Source: Arcobacteraceae bacterium (lineage in GTDB: Bacteria > Campylobacterota > Campylobacteria > Campylobacterales > Arcobacteraceae). Taken from it: a stretch of DNA of 64,000 bases. The translations under genes were made by a program, and so were the position numbers. The first letter of the stretch is position 1. Every line of letters starts with the position of its first letter. The stretch is from assembly GCA_963662945.1 (NCBI GenBank), contig OY759974.1, positions 1,760,001 through 1,824,000 on the forward strand, given 5' to 3'. Positions 42,185-50,751 of this stretch are shown here, one piece after another. The notes under the pieces were generated by a model, which saw nothing but the letters and a program-made list of their open reading frames with translations, did no database searches and was not told the origin of the DNA.

Positions 42185-42493
42185 CTAGGAATTACATTTT
42201 TTTTCTAGATCAGGTATTTCCATATTAAGGTAACTAATCTCTTTTAGAATTGACTGCCTAAATTGGTCTAGAGGTTTTCTTACACTATAGTATGCCCATC
42301 TTCCTTTTCTATCAACTTTTAAAAAACCTGCATCTTTAAGTATTTTTAAATGTCGTGATATTCTTGACTGTATCATCCCAAATGAGTTTTCAATGTCACA
42401 AACACATACTTCGCCATTTATATTTATAAAATGAAGTATTTTAATTCTTGTTTCATCATTTAAACTACTGATTGTTTTTAGAAATATCTCCAT
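42185..42493 (-). CDS. arsR: ArsR/SmtB family repressor
   Basis: EVCVCDI; QSRISRHLKILK; RKGRWAYY. Confidence 0.9.
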   Translation of the reverse strand: MEIFLKTISSLNDETRIKILHFININGEVCVCDIENSFGMIQSRISRHLKILKDAGFLKVDRKGRWAYYSVRKPLDQFRQSILKEISYLNMEIPDLEKKCNS

Positions 42494-42502
42494 ACTCTAT
42501 CT

Positions 42503-43804
42503 TTATTTGAATTTTATAATAATCATACCACAAAATTTATTGTCATTATCATAAAACTCAACTCTAAAACTTTTTTGTTCCTTGTCAACAGCAAATCTAT
42601 CGAGAATATCTTTTTTTGAAATAAGAATATTATTTTCATTATCAACATTATCTTTACTAAAACCAATAATATTGACCCTGAAGTTTGTAGAGGCATTAAT
42701 TTTAAAGGTCTTATTTACTTCGATAATATCACCAAATTTAGCAATTTTATTTTCATTGTCAACAACTAATTTTATATCATCTTTTAAATCACAATATTCA
42801 AAGTATTGGGGAATTAAAGTCCCAACTCTTTTGTTTCCTATCATAAAATTATAATTTCCTTTGTATTTTACAATAGCCCCTAGTGGATGTTCAAATTTAA
42901 AAATATTATCACTATTTTTAAGTGGAAAATAGTAGTTTGTAGATTTTATAGTTTCTAAATCAAGGGTAATACGGTCATTGATTTTGACTTTTTTATAGTT
43001 ATTTAAAATAGCTTCTAGTTGTTCAAGGTTATCTAAATCAAAATTTCTTTCATATTCAATTCCCATAATATTCATAAAACTCTCAATGGCTTTGAGTTGA
43101 TATTTTACTTTTTTAACTAAATCAGTAATATTTTTACTAGTTTCTACTGCAAATGCAGGTTTATGATGTGTGATGGCAAAATAGGTAAGGGAAAGTTGCA
43201 TCTGTTCATCTTTCTCTTTTGTTTTTGTATTTTTTATATTAAAAGAGTGATGATTTTCTACCAGTCCATTATTGAGGTCAACACTCACTTGTTTTGCAAT
43301 CTCATCAAGATTTGAAAATTTTATATCTTTATGAATTTTAGTTTGATCTATAATAAAAGCTTGTCCCCAAGCACTAGGATTAAAAATAGAACTTTCCCAT
43401 TTATGTCTATAAAATCCTCTTCCATCGTGCAGATTCAAAATTAAATCCACTTTTTTATCTAAGATAAGTTTTTTTATATTTTGTACAGTTTCATAATCTT
43501 CATCATTTTTTTCTACTTTATTGAATTTTCTATTCATATCTCCGTAGATTCCACGTTGATTTCTGACAATACTATCAAAATTGAGGTTTGGTACTATCCA
43601 AAGAGAGCCTTTTTTGATAGTATAATTTTGAATTAATACAGAAGGAGCAAAATACCCACCAGGCTCATCACCGTGAATTCCACCAATCACTAATAAAGTA
43701 TTTTCCCCTTGAGCCTCTTTTTTGTGTAAATCAAAGTTAAGAATTGCTCCCATTAAAATATTTGTGATTAAAGTCACTAGTAAAAATGGTTTAAAAAGAT
43801 TCAT
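42503..43804 (-). CDS. M99/M14 peptidoglycan carboxypeptidase (Csd4/Pgp1-like)
   Basis: GGIHGDEPGG; GDMNRKF; LNLHDG; signal peptide. Confidence 0.82.
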   Translation of the reverse strand: MNLFKPFLLVTLITNILMGAILNFDLHKKEAQGENTLLVIGGIHGDEPGGYFAPSVLIQNYTIKKGSLWIVPNLNFDSIVRNQRGIYGDMNRKFNKVEKNDEDYETVQNIKKLILDKKVDLILNLHDGRGFYRHKWESSIFNPSAWGQAFIIDQTKIHKDIKFSNLDEIAKQVSVDLNNGLVENHHSFNIKNTKTKEKDEQMQLSLTYFAITHHKPAFAVETSKNITDLVKKVKYQLKAIESFMNIMGIEYERNFDLDNLEQLEAILNNYKKVKINDRITLDLETIKSTNYYFPLKNSDNIFKFEHPLGAIVKYKGNYNFMIGNKRVGTLIPQYFEYCDLKDDIKLVVDNENKIAKFGDIIEVNKTFKINASTNFRVNIIGFSKDNVDNENNILISKKDILDRFAVDKEQKSFRVEFYDNDNKFCGMIIIKFK

Positions 43805-43807
43805 ACT

Positions 43808-45298
43808 TTAATGTCCTCCCATAACTTTTTCTATCTCTTCAGGTTTATCATGGATTCCAAATCTATCTATAATTGTTGCGGTTGCTTCATTTTTTCCAAT
43901 GATTTCCACCTCAATACCAGCTTTTCGTAATTTATATACTGACTTATCAAGTGCAAAAACAGCTGAAACATCCCAAAAATGGGCACGACTTACATCAATA
44001 ACCACTTTTTTTATATTCTCTTTGAAATCAAAAGAGGCGATAAACTTATCACTACTATTGAAAAACACTTGACCTATAAATTTATAAAATTTTGTTTTTC
44101 CCTCATCTTCATAGTGTTCTTCGTGGTAAAAAAAGTGACTAATTTTATTGGCAAAAAAGAGTGAGGCTAATAATACTCCTGTAAGGACTCCCAGTGCTAA
44201 ATTGTGGGTAAATACTGTGACTAATGTGGTTGAAAGCATCACAATATTTGTAGAAAGAGGTAAGGTTTTAAGCCCAGTAATAGATGCCCAATTAAAGGTA
44301 CTAATAGAGACCATAATCATCACGGCAACTAAAGCAGCCATAGGGATGATAGCGACTAAATCACTTAAAAATACTACTAAAATAAGTAAAAATATCCCTG
44401 CTAAAAATGTAGAGAGTCTTCCTCTACCTCCTGATTTCACATTGATAACTGATTGTCCTATCATGGCACATCCAGCCATTCCCCCTAAACAACCAGAAGC
44501 GATATTGGCAATTCCTTGACCTCTTGCTTCTTTATTTTTATCACTTGTAGTATCAGTCATATCATCTAAAATAGTAGCAGTCATAAGTGACTCTAAAAGT
44601 CCCACAATTGCAAGTGAAAAAGAGTATGGAAAAATAATTTGTAAAGTTTCAAAATTTAAAGGGATGTTAGGGAGAAGAAAGATTGGTAAAGTATCAGGCA
44701 ATTCTCCCATATCTCCAACAGTTCGTATATCAATTCCAAAATAAGCCACAACGATTGTTAAAATAATGATAGTCACCAGTGGAGATGGTAAAAGTTTTCC
44801 TATTTTTGGTATATAAGGAAAAAGATAAATGATTCCTAATCCAATAGCAGTCAAAAGATACACATGCCAAGTAACATCAACAAGTTCAGGAAGTTGTGCC
44901 ATAAAAATAAGTATTGCTAGTGCGTTTACAAACCCAATCACCACCGCTCGTGCGACAAAACTCATCAATTTTGCAATACCAATATAGGCTAAAATAATTT
45001 GAAAAATTCCTGTTAAAATTGTAGCGGCTAGAAGGTATTGAAGTCCATGTTCTTTAACTAAAAGTACCATCACTAAAGCCATTGCTCCAGTTGCTGCACT
45101 AATCATAGCGGGTCTTCCACCGACAATTGAAATAACCACAGCGATACAAAAAGAGGCATAGAGACCAACTTTTGGGTCAACCCCAGCGATGATAGAAAAA
45201 GCTATCGCTTCAGGAATCAAGGCAATACCAACTACTAAAGCTGATAAAATATCTCCTCTTATATTTCCAAACCACTCTTTTTTAATATTTGTGTACAT
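43808..45298 (-). CDS. SulP family anion transporter with STAS domain
   Basis: [35 protein letters not shown]-terminal STAS. Confidence 0.93.
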
Positions 45299-45440: not shown

Positions 45441-45677
45441 CTATTTACTTTGAAGTATTTCTATGATTTCATCTACACTTAAAAGTTTTCCTGTACTTTT
45501 TACTGTTCCATCAACTACAAGAGCAGGGGTACTAACAACATTGTATTTCATAATCTCCATTATATCCTCCACTTTTTTTACATCATGAAATCCACCAATT
45601 TTTGTTAAAGCCTCTTTTGTATTAGCTTCTAGTGCTCTACATTTAGCACATCCAGTTCCTAAAATTTCTATTTTCAT
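45441..45677 (-). CDS. Small thioredoxin-family redox protein (MTH895-like)
   Basis: LGTGCAKC; STPALVVDG. Confidence 0.9.
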   Translation of the reverse strand: MKIEILGTGCAKCRALEANTKEALTKIGGFHDVKKVEDIMEIMKYNVVSTPALVVDGTVKSTGKLLSVDEIIEILQSK

Positions 45678-45690
45678 ACCTATCTCCTTT

Positions 45691-46653
45691 TTATAAAATT
45701 ATATTAAACATATACCCAACAAGAAGTATTCCTAAACCTACAATTGCAAAAAATATAGCGATAAGTTTAATATCTAATATTCTTTTTAATATCATAGCTT
45801 CTGGTAAACTTAAAGCTGTAACAGCCATCATAAATGCCAACGCACTTCCAAGTAACATCCCTTTGGCTGTTAATACTTCAACAAGTGGCATAACTCCTGC
45901 TGCGTTTGCATACATTGGTATCCCCATTAAAACAGCAACTGGCACAGCATACCAAGCATCGCCACCTGCATATTTTGCGATAAATTCTGCAGGAATATAT
46001 CCATGAATAAATGCACCAATTCCAACACCAATCATCACATAAAGATATATTTTTTTGAAAATATCGGCTGTATATTCCCAAGCTTCTTTTACTCTTTGTT
46101 GTAATGTAAGTTTAATTTGAACATCTTCAAGTTCTCCCTCAATTGGAGTAACAGGAATCAAAACATATTTTTCTATATTTTTGATTTTCCCTATAAAATA
46201 TCCACCAAATATAGCAACTACTAGTCCAAAACCTATATAGATAGCTGTAATTTTCCATCCAAACAGTCCAAATAACATTGCTATTGCAATTTCATTGTTT
46301 AAAGGAGATGAGATAAGAAAACTAAAAGTTATCCCTATAGGGATTCTTGCTTGCATAAATCCAAGAAATAATGGTATAGCACTACAGCTACAAAAAGGTG
46401 TAATGATACCAAAAAGTGCAGCAAGAATATTTCCACTAAATTCTGATTTTCCTTGTAGATACACACGAACTTTTTCCGTGTTAAAATAGGTTCGTAAAAA
46501 ACTTACTGCAAAAATAATAGTGATAAGTAAAATAAATATTTTTATAGTATCATAGATAAAAAAATGTGTAGCACTTCCTACAGCACTAGTAGATTCTAGT
46601 CCCCAAAAGTTATAAACTAATTTATCAACAATTTTTTCCCACCAATCAAACAT
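45691..46653 (-). CDS. arsP: ArsP-family permease
   Basis: TPFCSCSAIP; ALSLPE; ars context. Confidence 0.85.
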   Translation of the reverse strand: MFDWWEKIVDKLVYNFWGLESTSAVGSATHFFIYDTIKIFILLITIIFAVSFLRTYFNTEKVRVYLQGKSEFSGNILAALFGIITPFCSCSAIPLFLGFMQARIPIGITFSFLISSPLNNEIAIAMLFGLFGWKITAIYIGFGLVVAIFGGYFIGKIKNIEKYVLIPVTPIEGELEDVQIKLTLQQRVKEAWEYTADIFKKIYLYVMIGVGIGAFIHGYIPAEFIAKYAGGDAWYAVPVAVLMGIPMYANAAGVMPLVEVLTAKGMLLGSALAFMMAVTALSLPEAMILKRILDIKLIAIFFAIVGLGILLVGYMFNIIL

Positions 46654-47054
46654 TATAATCCTAAAGCTTTTTGAATTTTAGGAATTAAAATCATTTCAAT
46701 TTCATCGTACGTTTCTTCAAATGCCTCAAAACCTTTTCCATCTGGATCCTCAAATCCCACATGAATTTTAGGAATTGGTTTTGGAAACATTGGACAAGTT
46801 TCATTTGCATGGTCACATACAGTGATAACTAAATCAAAATCTTCATCGATAACTGTATCAAGTGTTTTACTGTGATATTCCTCTTTCCAAATTCCTTTTT
46901 CTTGTAGAAGTTTTTTTGCATTTGGATTCACTTTTCCACTAGCTTTCACTCCACTACTTTGGGCTTTTACTCCATTAAGTTTTGCATTTATAAGTGCTTC
47001 TGCTATGATACTTCTACAGCTATTTCCTGTACATAATACTAATACTTTTTTCAT
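46653..47054 (-). CDS. arsC: Thioredoxin-coupled arsenate reductase
   Basis: CTGNSCRS; CDHANETCP; DP. Confidence 0.93.
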   Translation of the reverse strand: MKKVLVLCTGNSCRSIIAEALINAKLNGVKAQSSGVKASGKVNPNAKKLLQEKGIWKEEYHSKTLDTVIDEDFDLVITVCDHANETCPMFPKPIPKIHVGFEDPDGKGFEAFEETYDEIEMILIPKIQKALGL

Positions 47055-47066
47055 GTTTTTTCCTTT

Positions 47067-48320
47067 TTAAATTAATGTTAATAAAACTATAAATAACACA
47101 GGTGGTGTTACTATCATTCCAAATTTACTGTATTCTTTAAAACTGATTTTTACCCCTTTTTGTGATAATACATGCAACCATAATAGCGTAGCTAAGCTAC
47201 CAAATGGTGTCATTTTCGGTCCTAAATTACATCCAATAATATTTGCATATATCATTGCCTCATTTCCAATGTTTGCTAATGAAATATCCATAATCATAAT
47301 AGTTGGCATATTGTTCATAAAAGCACTTAAAAAAGCTGCGATAAAACCTGTACCAACAACTGCTATAAAATCACTTTGTGTAGCTAAATCTTTGAGTATT
47401 ACCTCTAGATAATCTGTTAGTCCAGCATTTTTAAGTCCATAAACAACTATATAAAGTCCAATACTGAACCACACAACTTGCCAAGGTGCTGTTTTAATAG
47501 TAAGCCATGCACGAGCAGATTTTGTGTAACTGGCAATTGCTAAAAATAAAAGTCCACCACCCAAAGCAAATAAACTTATTGGAAGATTATAAATATCTCC
47601 TATAAAATATCCAACTAAAAGTAGAGCTAAAAAGAACCAACTAAATTTAAAAAGTGCTTTATTTTTTAAAACATCATCTGGATTTTTAAGAAGCGTTATG
47701 TCTATCTCTTTTGGAATATCTTTTCGTAAAACTACCCATAGTACAATTATAGAGATAATTGTACTTACAACATAAGGGATAAACATATTTGATAGATATT
47801 CCACAAAACCTATATGAAAATAATTTGCTGTTACGATGTTTGTAAGATTTGAAAATACAAAAGGGAGTGATGCACTATCACTGATAAATCCACCTGCAAG
47901 TAAAAAAGCAATAATAGTTTTAAAATTGAGTTGTAGTATTCTCATTTTAGCTAAAAGTATTGGAGTGAGTATAAGTGCAGCTCCATCATTTGCAAAAAGT
48001 GCAGATACAAATGAACCTAAAAGTAGAGCATAGATAAACATCAAATGACCATTACCACGTGATAGTTTTGCCATTTTAATAGCACACCATTCAAAAAAAC
48101 CTATCTCATCTAAAACCATAGATAAAATAATAATTCCAATAAAAGCTAATGTAGCATCCCAAACTATATTTGTTACAGTTAATACATCATTAAAACTTAC
48201 AGCTCCAAATAGTAAAGCAGTTATTGCCCCTATAATTGCAGTTGTTCCTATTTGTAAATTTTTTGGTTGCCAAATAACAAACAAAAGGGTGAGTAAAAAT
48301 ATTACACTAGCAGTGAACAT
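47067..48320 (-). CDS. arsB: Arsenite efflux pump
   Basis: VIWQPK; FANDGAALILTP; SNLTN; GSLATLLW. Confidence 0.95.
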   Translation of the reverse strand: MFTASVIFLLTLLFVIWQPKNLQIGTTAIIGAITALLFGAVSFNDVLTVTNIVWDATLAFIGIIILSMVLDEIGFFEWCAIKMAKLSRGNGHLMFIYALLLGSFVSALFANDGAALILTPILLAKMRILQLNFKTIIAFLLAGGFISDSASLPFVFSNLTNIVTANYFHIGFVEYLSNMFIPYVVSTIISIIVLWVVLRKDIPKEIDITLLKNPDDVLKNKALFKFSWFFLALLLVGYFIGDIYNLPISLFALGGGLLFLAIASYTKSARAWLTIKTAPWQVVWFSIGLYIVVYGLKNAGLTDYLEVILKDLATQSDFIAVVGTGFIAAFLSAFMNNMPTIMIMDISLANIGNEAMIYANIIGCNLGPKMTPFGSLATLLWLHVLSQKGVKISFKEYSKFGMIVTPPVLFIVLLTLI

Positions 48321-48334
48321 CTATTTTTCCCATT

Positions 48335-49240
48335 CTAACTGTAGTAGTAATTTTGGATATTGTTATAGTTAAGTTGCTTGTAAAAATTGAGATAATTAAA
48401 CTTATCACTTTTAACAGTTTGTTCTAAATCTAAAGTATCTACTCCATCATCATAGGCTTTTTTTAAATCTTTTCTTAATATTTGAAGATATTCTAAAGAT
48501 GGTTTGTACGAGTCTTTATGGTATTCATTTCCATGACCACCTAAAATATATTTTGCGTTGTATTTACCTAGATTTTCTAAAGCTTCAATCCATCCGTCAA
48601 TATTTGAATTTTTTGTATAATTTAACATTCTACCGTTAAACACGATATTCCCTACAAAAAAGAAACTATCATCTTTGCTATAAATAGCAATGTCACTTTT
48701 CTCTTCTGAAACTGCACTTAATTTGAGTATCTCTAAAGTTTTTTTGCTACCTACTATTTTATATCCATTTTCCACTAAAGTATCAGCTAAAATTACTTTC
48801 GTATTTTCTAAAACATCTGGAGATAAAATCATCTTCATTCTTTCAAACTTCTCTTTATTATCTTTTATATCATCATTGAGATTTTTATATCCTACAATTT
48901 TTGCTCCCTTTTCTTGGAAAAAAGAAGCACCTTGAGTTCTATCATCATGAAAATTTGATAAAATAACATGAGAGATATCTTTTTTTGGATAATCTTTTTT
49001 GATTATTTGATAAAATTCTTGTGCAAATTTATATGTTGGACCTGCATCTAAAACAACTATGCTATTGCCTATATCAACATAGCACATATTAGAAACAAAA
49101 CCATTATTTTCTTTTGTAGGTGGATTGAAATCACCAATAACACAGTGAATATCCTTTGTAATTGTTAAGGGCTTTAGGTTGTATATATTTGCTACTAACA
49201 ATAAACTCAATGATAACAATATTAAAATTATTTTTTTCAT
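48335..49240 (-). CDS. Exported MBL-fold protein (SoxH-like) with degenerate metal site; probable C-terminal frameshift
   Basis: Signal peptide; VLDAGPT; SNFHDDR; GGHG; QLEWEK* in another frame ending at 48321. Confidence 0.75.
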   Translation of the reverse strand: MKKIILILLSLSLLLVANIYNLKPLTITKDIHCVIGDFNPPTKENNGFVSNMCYVDIGNSIVVLDAGPTYKFAQEFYQIIKKDYPKKDISHVILSNFHDDRTQGASFFQEKGAKIVGYKNLNDDIKDNKEKFERMKMILSPDVLENTKVILADTLVENGYKIVGSKKTLEILKLSAVSEEKSDIAIYSKDDSFFFVGNIVFNGRMLNYTKNSNIDGWIEALENLGKYNAKYILGGHGNEYHKDSYKPSLEYLQILRKDLKKAYDDGVDTLDLEQTVKSDKFNYLNFYKQLNYNNIQNYYYS

Positions 49241-49265
49241 AATTTTTTCCTTTTGAATGTTTTGA

Positions 49266-49294
49266 ATTATATCATATATATTTTAATATATCAA
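49266..49294 (-). promoter_or_regulatory. Sigma70 promoter of the ars operon
   Basis: Minus strand reads TTGATA, 17-nt spacer, TATAAT (TGATATAAT extended -10). Confidence 0.75.
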
Positions 49295-49309
49295 GATATA
49301 TTGATATAT
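49286..49309. promoter_or_regulatory. ArsR/SmtB-type operator
   Basis: ATATATCAA-GATATA-TTGATATAT perfect 9-6-9 inverted repeat (ATCAA-N6-TTGAT core) overlapping the -35. Confidence 0.75.
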
Positions 49310-49365
49310 AATGTTTTGAAATTTTATATAAATAGTTATATAATGGTCACATTAAAGGAAGTTAG

Positions 49366-50751
49366 ATGACAAAAATAATTGATTTAAAAGAATTTGCATA
49401 TTTTTTAAGAGTTCATAGAAATGATATTATAACAAATTGGCTTGAAAGAAATGAAGTGAAAAATATTATTCATAAACATTCAATACCAATAGTTGAAAAA
49501 AATATGAATATTTTTTATGGATTTTGTGATTGTTTTATAAGTATTTATCAATGGAATTTTACAATATCAGAATGTCAGGCAAGGATGGATTTTTTACATC
49601 TTCTAAATAAATATAATGTTACGAATAATGAACTTTATACATTGATATTACGATTACAATCAGCAATAGAAAATGCAATTTATAAAGATGGAAATCTTTC
49701 TTATAATATTCAGATGGAATTGGAAACAGTTACCATAAGTATTGCAAATGAACTTACTGATACATATGCGCATTTAAAGGATGAAAATAGTTATAAGCAA
49801 AATGAGCAGAGTAATCTTTTAGCTGAATATAAAAAAGCAGTAGATATTAGTAATATTGTATCAAAAACAAATCCTAAAGGGATTATCACCTATGTAAACG
49901 ATAAGTTTTGTAAAATAAGTGGATATACACAAGAAGAACTTATTGGAAAAGCACATAATATTATACGGCATCCAAGTATGGATAGAGAAGTATTTAAAGA
50001 GTTATGGGATACTGTAAAATCTAAAAAATCTTGGCATGGAATAGTGACTAATATGGCAAAAGATGGAAGTTCTTATGTTGTTGACTCTACTGTGATTCCT
50101 ATACTTGATGTTGATGGTGATATTATAGAATTTATTGCAGTTAGACATGATATAACAGAATTTGAAAAAACAAAAGAACAGTTACAAAATATTAATAAAG
50201 TTATGAGAAATAAAGTTGATGAACTTTATTCAGTTACATCCTCTTTGGAAGAAAAAGCAACAAAAGACGAGTTAACAAGTTTATATAATAGAGCTAAATT
50301 TGAAGAGATTTTTTCATATGAGATTAACAAAGCAAAACATTATAATCACAATTTAAGTGTAATATTATTTGATATAGATCATTTTAAAAATATTAATGAT
50401 ACTTATGGACATCAAGCGGGAGATGTTACATTAAAAGAGCTTTCAAGTTTGATTGCGAAAAATATTAAAACAAGTGATGTATTTGCAAGATGGGGTGGTG
50501 AAGAGTTTATTATACTTTTACCTGATACTGATATTGAAGGCGCTTTACAATTTGCTCAGAAATTAAGAAAATTAATTAAAGCAAATAAATTTACTGAAAT
50601 AGAATTTATGACAGCAAGTTTTGGTGTTGCGCAGTTTGAGGAATATGAAGATAAGCTTACCTTATTTGAAAAAGTTGATAAAGCATTATATATAGCAAAA
50701 AATAATGGTAGAGATAGAGTAGAACAAAGTCTTTTTAATTGTGTGCACTAA
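49366..50751 (+). CDS. Diguanylate cyclase with helical N-terminal domain and PAS
   Basis: RHPSM PAS; DELTSLYNR; RWGGEEF. Confidence 0.9.
   Translation: MTKIIDLKEFAYFLRVHRNDIITNWLERNEVKNIIHKHSIPIVEKNMNIFYGFCDCFISIYQWNFTISECQARMDFLHLLNKYNVTNNELYTLILRLQSAIENAIYKDGNLSYNIQMELETVTISIANELTDTYAHLKDENSYKQNEQSNLLAEYKKAVDISNIVSKTNPKGIITYVNDKFCKISGYTQEELIGKAHNIIRHPSMDREVFKELWDTVKSKKSWHGIVTNMAKDGSSYVVDSTVIPILDVDGDIIEFIAVRHDITEFEKTKEQLQNINKVMRNKVDELYSVTSSLEEKATKDELTSLYNRAKFEEIFSYEINKAKHYNHNLSVILFDIDHFKNINDTYGHQAGDVTLKELSSLIAKNIKTSDVFARWGGEEFIILLPDTDIEGALQFAQKLRKLIKANKFTEIEFMTASFGVAQFEEYEDKLTLFEKVDKALYIAKNNGRDRVEQSLFNCVH

Follow-up and report, generated by a model that had tools for sequence, protein, structure and literature searches.

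Among described arsenic resistance (ars) operons, the arsP–arsR–arsC–acr3 operon of Campylobacter jejuni is ArsR-regulated and arsenic-inducible (PMC3598800), and it has an ArsR-type repressor gene, arsC and arsP in common with the operon described here. The known ars accessory genes (those for ArsE/F/G, H, I, J, K, L, M, N, O, U, V, W and FolE) list no member with a metallo-β-lactamase (MBL) fold, neither "lactamase" nor "hydrolase" appears in the main text of PMC6205960, PMC4435449 and PMC9144182, and we found no published MBL-fold gene in an ars operon in the full-text literature, a body that leaves supplements and most subscription journals outside its scope. SoxH and the SoxH-related quinoprotein relay zinc metallohydrolases (TIGR04558/TIGR04559, PP_2678 type), for their part, are exported MBL-fold proteins of about 300 amino acids with C-terminal helices and an LEWE-type end; one proposed role of SoxH is to free sulfate from SoxY (PMC10045233), and the gene for the SoxH-like PP_2678 lies beside SoxYZ-like and rhodanese genes in pyrroloquinoline quinone clusters (PMC12997753). 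Here we analyze a 64,000-nucleotide stretch of DNA from an Arcobacteraceae bacterium (contig OY759974.1 of assembly GCA_963662945.1, positions 1,760,001 to 1,824,000; hereafter the window), in which an ars operon that shares an ArsE-family thioredoxin gene with the known systems is, unlike them, headed by a SoxH-related MBL-fold gene (48321..49240, minus strand, 306 amino acids). As judged from sequence comparisons, the encoded protein belongs to a subfamily that has no name and is found in ars operons or sox clusters of Campylobacterota. There is a strong regulatory and genomic case that the gene is real and conserved and belongs to ars operons as an accessory gene, one that seems not to have been described before; its product appears to be a SoxH-related MBL hydrolase of a variant kind, whose one-metal site is like that of the hydrolase Chd, and its substrate is one that we infer below.

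The window lies in a complete genome of 2.50 Mb with 29% guanine plus cytosine, and the loci most similar to its MBL gene in our scan of GTDB genomes are labelled Arcobacteraceae. In the assembly, the open reading frame of the gene spans 48335–49240 on the minus strand and encodes 301 amino acids. A preliminary interpretation made from the nucleotides alone (the sequence-only reading) had run the gene to 48321, abutting arsB, despite the assembled stop at 48335, and two observations bear this out. In particular, a contig assembled independently from run X4 (depth 2571), the only one of four runs compared that covered position 48340 (X1, X3 and X5 did not), has one additional base behind that position, and a database protein from another assembly (P0012), which shows no differences where the two overlap, has 306 amino acids. 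Because of these two observations, the early stop at 48335 is a one-base assembly error near 48340 and the true stop ends at 48321, a real truncation by a premature stop is ruled out, and 0 nt separate the corrected end of the gene from the ATG of arsB.

The product matches PF00753 (Lactamase_B) with 44 bits against a cutoff of 22.7, which places it in the MBL-fold superfamily, as do fold searches. A Sec signal peptide is predicted at approximately residues 1–17 (49190..49240, minus strand), with neither a lipobox Cys nor a twin-Arg motif. This prediction, which agrees with the sequence-only reading, comes from a crude hydropathy test in which the MKK plus hydrophobic stretch at the N-terminus is the sole hydrophobic stretch of the protein and in which 50/53 members of its clade behave alike; solved structures start aligning at residue 17–21, and the cleavage site is placed from relatives. 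The protein is thus predicted, with high confidence, to be exported. Its sole cysteines, C33 and C53 (49082..49144, minus strand), are invariant in the clade and in 13/13 rows of the canonical outgroup, exactly two Cys are present in 51/53 clade proteins, and the pair probably forms a structural disulfide. As there are only two Cys and non-ars paralogs have them too, the protein has no As(III)-binding thiol cluster of the clustered, clade-specific kind found in ArsD and ArsR. A search of the ESM Atlas with the protein returned generic MBL-fold clusters only, Rfam had zero matches within the window, and the names that databases give to relatives go no further than MBL-fold hydrolase, glyoxylase-like or cyclase.

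Directly upstream of the gene, as the sequence-only reading had noted, lies a σ70-type promoter, TTGATA-17-(TG)TATAAT, with an extended −10 element (11/12 by consensus match only; 49294 to 49266, minus strand). It ranks first, tied with a divergent promoter, among 59 promoter-like matches, a total that is not above shuffled expectation (mean 52.2). The operator named in that reading, an ATCAA-N6-TTGAT core, fared less evenly: alone the core occurs in 35 copies in the genome, is not significant and was dropped as evidence, and for that reason we built a 28-bp matrix instead, trained on 27 sites that precede other ars genes in other genomes and were chosen for carrying the core (the window's own site was excluded). 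The full 28-bp palindrome at 49284..49311 (no strand assigned) scored 38.0 against 14.3 for the next-best site, and is therefore the single best operator site in the genome by this matrix. Its promoter-side half covers the −35 box, an overlap that, by position, is the layout of a repressor site. The operator is common to other ars promoters: among the eight loci at the best operator-pattern matches in five further genomes (two of the loci overlap each other), six carry arsR, arsB, arsC or arsP, and the other two are two-mismatch sites. The protein that binds 49284–49311 is putatively ArsR. The arsR gene of the window encodes the only ArsR of its type in the genome (a single tblastn match), and a CxC motif is found in 40/41 ArsR matches at linked loci. 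Together, these findings make membership of the MBL gene in the ArsR regulon highly probable. (Note that a PAS-GGDEF gene diverges from the same region, at 49316–50751, with its own 11/12 promoter match clear of the operator.)

The sequence-only reading had proposed a new exported member of the ArsR regulon and had offered linkage of homologues to ars genes as the check. Our scan of GTDB genomes for the MBL gene yielded 68 loci with 43–84% identity, of which 51 have arsB, arsC, arsP or arsR within 5 kb and 53 are ars-linked once a directly upstream operator is counted, L074 and L079 having the operator and no ars gene within 5 kb. By comparison, ars genes or the operator were found at 0/20 paralog loci (flanks of approximately 5 kb), 12 of which have sox genes; the homologue and paralog source locus sets overlap, and kin among them are not independent. 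Where full 5-kb flanks are available on both sides, 27/33 loci are ars-linked; the operator lies directly upstream of the MBL gene in 16 loci, and 146 of the 148 ars matches are on the same strand as the MBL gene. Gene order takes 34 forms among the 51 ars-linked loci, although contigs that were cut make this number too high, and the neighbours within 5 kb at the 68 loci comprise arsP (45), thioredoxin (43), arsC (34), arsR (34) and arsB (24). This conserved co-location and orientation, together with the conserved operator, is what the proposal called for and argues for a strong link of the MBL gene to ars operons. In one locus (L047) the gene lies behind arsP and beside arsenite oxidase genes, both over cutoff, with arrAB-like genes also present (below cutoff, arrA partial). 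The island in question (L047:1-10915, in an Arcobacter metagenome-assembled genome) carries arrAB-like genes, a two-component pair, a gene for a phosphonate-type binding protein, arsenite oxidase genes, arsP and the MBL gene. The clade is uncommon: it is present in 10/401 genomes of the phylum, was not found in families f11 (0/158) and f26 (0/118), the two largest families of Campylobacterota, and, of 1.84 billion cluster representatives, about a dozen at the head of the ranking are the only ones with its motif.

The active site of the protein departs from the canonical two-metal site (H-x-H-x-D-H, a third His, a bridging Asp and a C-terminal His), with four of the seven canonical ligand positions replaced in 53/53 rows (N96, R101, E179 and N198). 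As the sequence-only reading had described, the MBL motif reads N96-F-H98-D99-D100-R101 (48938..48955, minus strand), E179 in SEEKSD (48704..48706, minus strand) aligns in place of the third His ligand, N198 in a GN motif (48647..48649, minus strand) occupies the Asp/Cys position, and H236 is retained in GGHG (48533..48535, minus strand). N96, H98, D99, D100, R101, N198 and H236 are invariant in all 53 clade rows, in which position 179 is E or N, and the clade has many further invariant polar residues. N198 is likewise invariant in 60/60 ars and 15/15 sox rows, with Asp in 13/13 outgroup rows. At position 179, ars-linked rows have E or N, sox-linked rows and Chd both have Q, and the outgroup has H. 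These replacements distinguish the subfamily (N-x-H-D-D-R / E,N,Q / GN) from the SoxH-related proteins at large (H-x-H-D-D-H / HT / GD), as does the occurrence of three of its branches in ars operons behind the operator.

The predicted structure of the protein (predicted local distance difference test score 94.2) best matches 8D2Z, an MBL-superfamily protein of Burkholderia cenocepacia (Z 32.8, root-mean-square deviation 2.4, 272 residues aligned) that has 16% identity, a different site (H-x-H-A-V-R, HT, GD) and a title that names no function. Chd (6UXU) matches over the whole chain (Z 31.4, root-mean-square deviation 2.3, 278 residues aligned). The catalytic zinc of Chd is bound by His117, His257, Asp116 and Asn216 plus water, and His114 takes part in the mechanism (PMC12784990). 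In a profile alignment (not one of coordinates), where Chd reads S-Y-H-G-D-H, AQT, GN and PGHG, H98, D100, N198 and H236 align with His114, Asp116, Asn216 and His257; that is, three of the four zinc ligands of Chd and its His114 are kept, which makes N198 and H236 predicted zinc ligands, and the first and third His of the MBL motif are lost in both proteins. The two differ in having 13% identity and unrelated substrate contexts. Since the one-zinc hydrolase Chd uses Asn216 as a ligand, an Asn at the Asp/Cys position does not make a dead site, and the suggestion in the sequence-only reading that such an unusual site speaks against hydrolysis is not supported. By analogy with Chd, we favor a one-metal hydrolase as the likelier identity of the protein.

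Within the MBL superfamily, the best NCBIfam matches of the protein are to the SoxH-related families TIGR04558 and TIGR04559, both below cutoff (129.1 against 300 and 125.7 against 280). Identity is 43–52% to members in sox clusters, which makes the protein a homologue of these, and 30% to the paralog in the host's own sox cluster, where a canonical SoxH is retained; the window gene itself is not sox-clustered. In three f23 genomes, a member with the same site is found in the order soxD–X–Y–Z–A–B–[gene]–dsrE, and since no other family member was found in any of the three (3/3), it fills the soxH slot there. Among 80 metagenome loci, many of them on short contigs and retrieved with an alignment of divergent members as query, 16 have a member right behind soxB and 38 are ars-linked. 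The N-x-H-D-D-R type stands in place of HxHDDH in the soxH slot of the three genome loci (L128-L130) and of the metagenome loci L158, L161, L170, L172, L173, L177, L182-L184, L186, L188, L194, L202, L209, L212 and L215, and these sox-cluster members likely reflect displacement within the family. In a careful tree of 40 rows, the ars members form three branches and the sox members one, all four with bootstrap 100, and the four group together (100/100) against the HxHDDH outgroup. In a quick tree, for which 136/160 loci passed a length filter and 104 were left after near-copy removal, the sox branch is nested among the ars branches (Shimodaira–Hasegawa-like approximate likelihood-ratio test 94), and in the careful tree the ars rows fall on one side of a branch with 54/0 support; the two trees differ in the order of the ars and sox branches and do not fix a direction of recruitment. 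The sox-linked members carry the same site, in 15 rows, which counts against the idea in the sequence-only reading that the odd site is an arsenic-specific adaptation, and we set that idea aside. Two further groups came to light: a rhodanese–MBL fusion paralog with a degenerate site, located behind a second rhodanese gene and conserved in the genus (C1:1258323-1259627 and L108-L114), and a SoxH-like branch that lacks nearly all metal ligands and in several cases has long extensions (P0154, P0155, P0156, P0157, P0160 and P0161).

We tallied the clade against soxB and arsP in 61 genomes, 28 of them from one genus. It is present in 22/35 soxB-positive and 2/26 soxB-negative genomes or, split further, in 21/30 with soxB and arsP, 2/14 with arsP only, 1/5 with soxB only and 0/12 with neither. 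Because 28 of the 61 genomes come from one genus, this co-occurrence with soxB is only a hint.

How might such a protein contribute to arsenic resistance? Arsenic–sulfur bonds are proposed as the substrate because the substrate should suit both the ars operon and the sox cluster; taken overall, an arsenic–sulfur substrate is a tentative call, somewhat short of an even one. Our working proposal, which draws on the analogies above and is held just as tentatively, is that the protein may be an ArsR-controlled periplasmic hydrolase of the SoxH type that acts on arsenic–sulfur species. A more specific form, about which we are more doubtful, is that the subfamily is a new ars family derived from SoxH, a dedicated thioarsenic hydrolase that, in the periplasm of sulfur-oxidising Campylobacterota, removes sulfur from thioarsenates or from thiol carriers poisoned by arsenic. 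In outline, As(III) would release ArsR, so that the MBL gene would be transcribed first, with arsB–arsC–arsP and the thioredoxin gene, and the protein would be exported by Sec. One Zn would be held by D100, N198 and H236, as the analogy with Chd suggests, and H98 would act as the general acid/base and in water activation, the role that we take His114 to have in Chd; R101, R134, R204, D37 and Y208 are candidate anion-binding residues. The least certain steps come last: ArsB and ArsP would export As(III) and methyl-As(III) to the periplasm, where sulfide, sulfane sulfur and the thiol carriers of Sox are plentiful and where thioarsenic species or As–thiol adducts (on SoxY, for example) may form, and the enzyme would release sulfur from these As–S species and so protect the Sox pathway. 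It has been reported that thioarsenates form from As(III) and sulfide and that monothioarsenate resembles thiosulfate, and Sox enzymes have been proposed to cleave monothioarsenate, in a transcriptome study that describes thioarsenate conversion as having no known enzymatic route (PMC6620896); a review describes mechanisms of thioarsenate resistance as expected and unverified (PMC6205960).

Several findings weigh against an arsenic–sulfur hydrolase. Fifteen of the 68 loci have neither ars genes nor the operator, and four of these (L044, L052, L064 and L065) have no ars sign within flanks of at least 5 kb on both sides. A clade member is missing from 21 of the 44 genomes with arsP, and the gene is therefore dispensable for the ars core. 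At the site itself, the position of the fourth Chd ligand, His117, is an invariant Arg (R101) and, because one of the four zinc ligands is thus replaced, metal binding there may be weak or absent. Moreover, the metal positions are the same in the ars and sox branches except for position 179, so nothing there marks an arsenic substrate. The co-occurrence with soxB is confounded by kinship, most positives being of one genus, in which the clade is also present in 2/5 soxB-negative arsP genomes. As for the literature, a related ars operon of Nitratiruptor is induced by Cd and Cu (PMC10092412), and the regulon would therefore not be arsenic-only; a role of sox in thioarsenate oxidation is supported in one strain and contradicted in another (PMC6620896); and SoxH has been called a protein of unknown function (PMC11237559).

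The strongest competitor to an arsenic–sulfur hydrolase, albeit an unlikely one, is that the protein performs the ordinary job of SoxH on a sulfur-only substrate (for instance, one bound to SoxY) under the control of ArsR and never touches arsenic, which would keep sulfur oxidation running under arsenic stress. The same site filling the soxH slot in one branch, the near confinement of the clade to soxB genomes and the presence of rhodaneses, CcdA/DsbD and periplasmic thioredoxins among the neighbours are all in keeping with such a role, for which the housekeeping gene folE, giving resistance from within an ars operon, is a precedent (PMC9144182). However, the sox cluster of the host still encodes a canonical SoxH, the 68 genome loci are without sox genes save for one soxW-like thioredoxin match, and two soxB-negative genomes (one 84% complete) carry the clade. 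Alternatively, and in line with the binding idea of the sequence-only reading, the protein could be an inactive binder with no catalytic metal, whose polar pocket sequesters periplasmic As(OH)3, arsenate or methylarsenite and so limits re-entry. The altered residues at four of the seven canonical ligand positions, the many invariant polar residues and the place of the gene at the head of the operon would fit; on the other hand, the residues that are retained are the catalytic set of Chd, there is no extra Cys, and it is not apparent what an arsenic binder would do for the sox-linked members. We regard such a binder as quite unlikely.

An enzyme coupled to ArsP, hydrolysing or otherwise processing, in the style of Chd, the methylated or aromatic arsenicals that ArsP exports, is in our estimation decidedly unlikely. 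ArsP is an exporter of trivalent organoarsenicals (PMC6205960), and its gene arsP is found more often than any other neighbour (45/68 loci), occurs without arsB and arsC in 15 loci against 5 the reverse, and 23/24 clade genomes have it. But arsP is common anyway (44/61 genomes), the MBL gene directly precedes arsB in 11 loci and arsP in 8, and the sox branch would be left unexplained. We also know of no precedent for hydrolytic C–As cleavage, which counts against this enzyme. A subclass B2-like β-lactamase carried in an ars operon, the likeness raised by the sequence-only reading, is the most improbable of the alternatives. What stands of the likeness is the motif: N-x-H-x-D-R (NFHDDR here, NYHTDR in CphA) and GGH are common to the window protein and the B2 enzymes CphA and Sfh-I, and CphA comes first in a narrow-profile sequence search (E 3.6e-13). 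Nothing beyond the motif agrees. The B2 model scores 40.1 bits against a cutoff of 240 and all β-lactamase models at most 45 bits; His196 and the ligand Cys221 of CphA have no equivalent, the positions being Glu and Asn; and the C-terminus is longer than in B2 enzymes, with extra helices common to 8D2Z and Chd, both of which outscore the β-lactamases (32.8 and 31.4 against at most 26.3). The model cutoffs, the missing His196 and Cys221 and the fold ranking together argue that the protein is not a class B β-lactamase.

Should the proposal of a hydrolase acting on arsenic–sulfur species hold, the subfamily would supply a missing mechanism of thioarsenate resistance, and the sox-linked sister branch would point to the reaction of SoxH; since that branch sits in the soxH position, one question covers both the role of the ars gene and the function of SoxH. 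Thioarsenates have been reported from sulfidic waters and hot springs, and the subfamily is one cloneable candidate for resistance to them, with links to ars operons in dozens of genomes from sulfur-oxidising Campylobacterota. Were the ordinary SoxH job under ArsR control the true role, sulfur oxidation would be an arsenic target that cells protect. With the subfamily, the MBL superfamily also gains a naturally occurring Asp-Asn-His site with Arg121.

The genes downstream of the MBL gene are those that the sequence-only reading had listed, as NCBIfam and Pfam matches confirm. All on the minus strand, they encode an ArsB arsenite efflux pump (47067..48320; NF011980, 585 bits, cutoff 457), an ArsC-type low-molecular-weight-phosphatase reductase (46653..47054; PF01451 (LMWPc), with NCBIfam arsenate-reductase matches below cutoff), an ArsP-family permease (ArsP_1; 45691..46653; PF03773, 226 bits) and a small thioredoxin of the MTH895/ArsE family (45441..45677; TIGR00412, 103.5 bits, cutoff 62), with successive gaps of 12, −1 and 13 nt. 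A 142-nt gap separates the thioredoxin gene from a sulP-family transporter gene that is followed by a gene for an M99 (Csd4-like) peptidase (together 42503..45298, minus strand). The arsR gene (42185..42493, minus strand; NF033788; CVC motif and a C-terminal Cys) lies behind these two genes and so is not adjacent to the ars genes. The sulP and M99 genes are placed likewise in the close relatives L032, L036, L041 and L049, all four of which have a universal stress protein gene between them that the window is without. A second M99 gene is present elsewhere in the genome.

Other features recur around the homologues. A gene pair for a DsbD/CcdA membrane protein and a periplasmic thioredoxin, which we take to resemble ArsG/ArsF or SoxV/SoxW, lies near the MBL gene in L031, L059, L077, L079, L087, L093 and L098; in L079 the operator precedes the order MBL gene–ccdA–thioredoxin. 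A further degenerate MBL gene is present in the ars region of L098. Four loci labelled Helicobacter or Desulfosporosinus (L038, L040, L054 and L056) encode proteins that group with Arcobacteraceae-type rows, and their labels or bins are probably wrong. Lastly, a gamma-glutamyl cyclotransferase-like gene (PF06094) recurs in the ars operons of L034, L046, L058, L067, L069, L072, L078, L081, L094 and L096, often between arsR and arsB, and is possibly another undescribed ars accessory gene, perhaps one that acts on glutathione conjugates.
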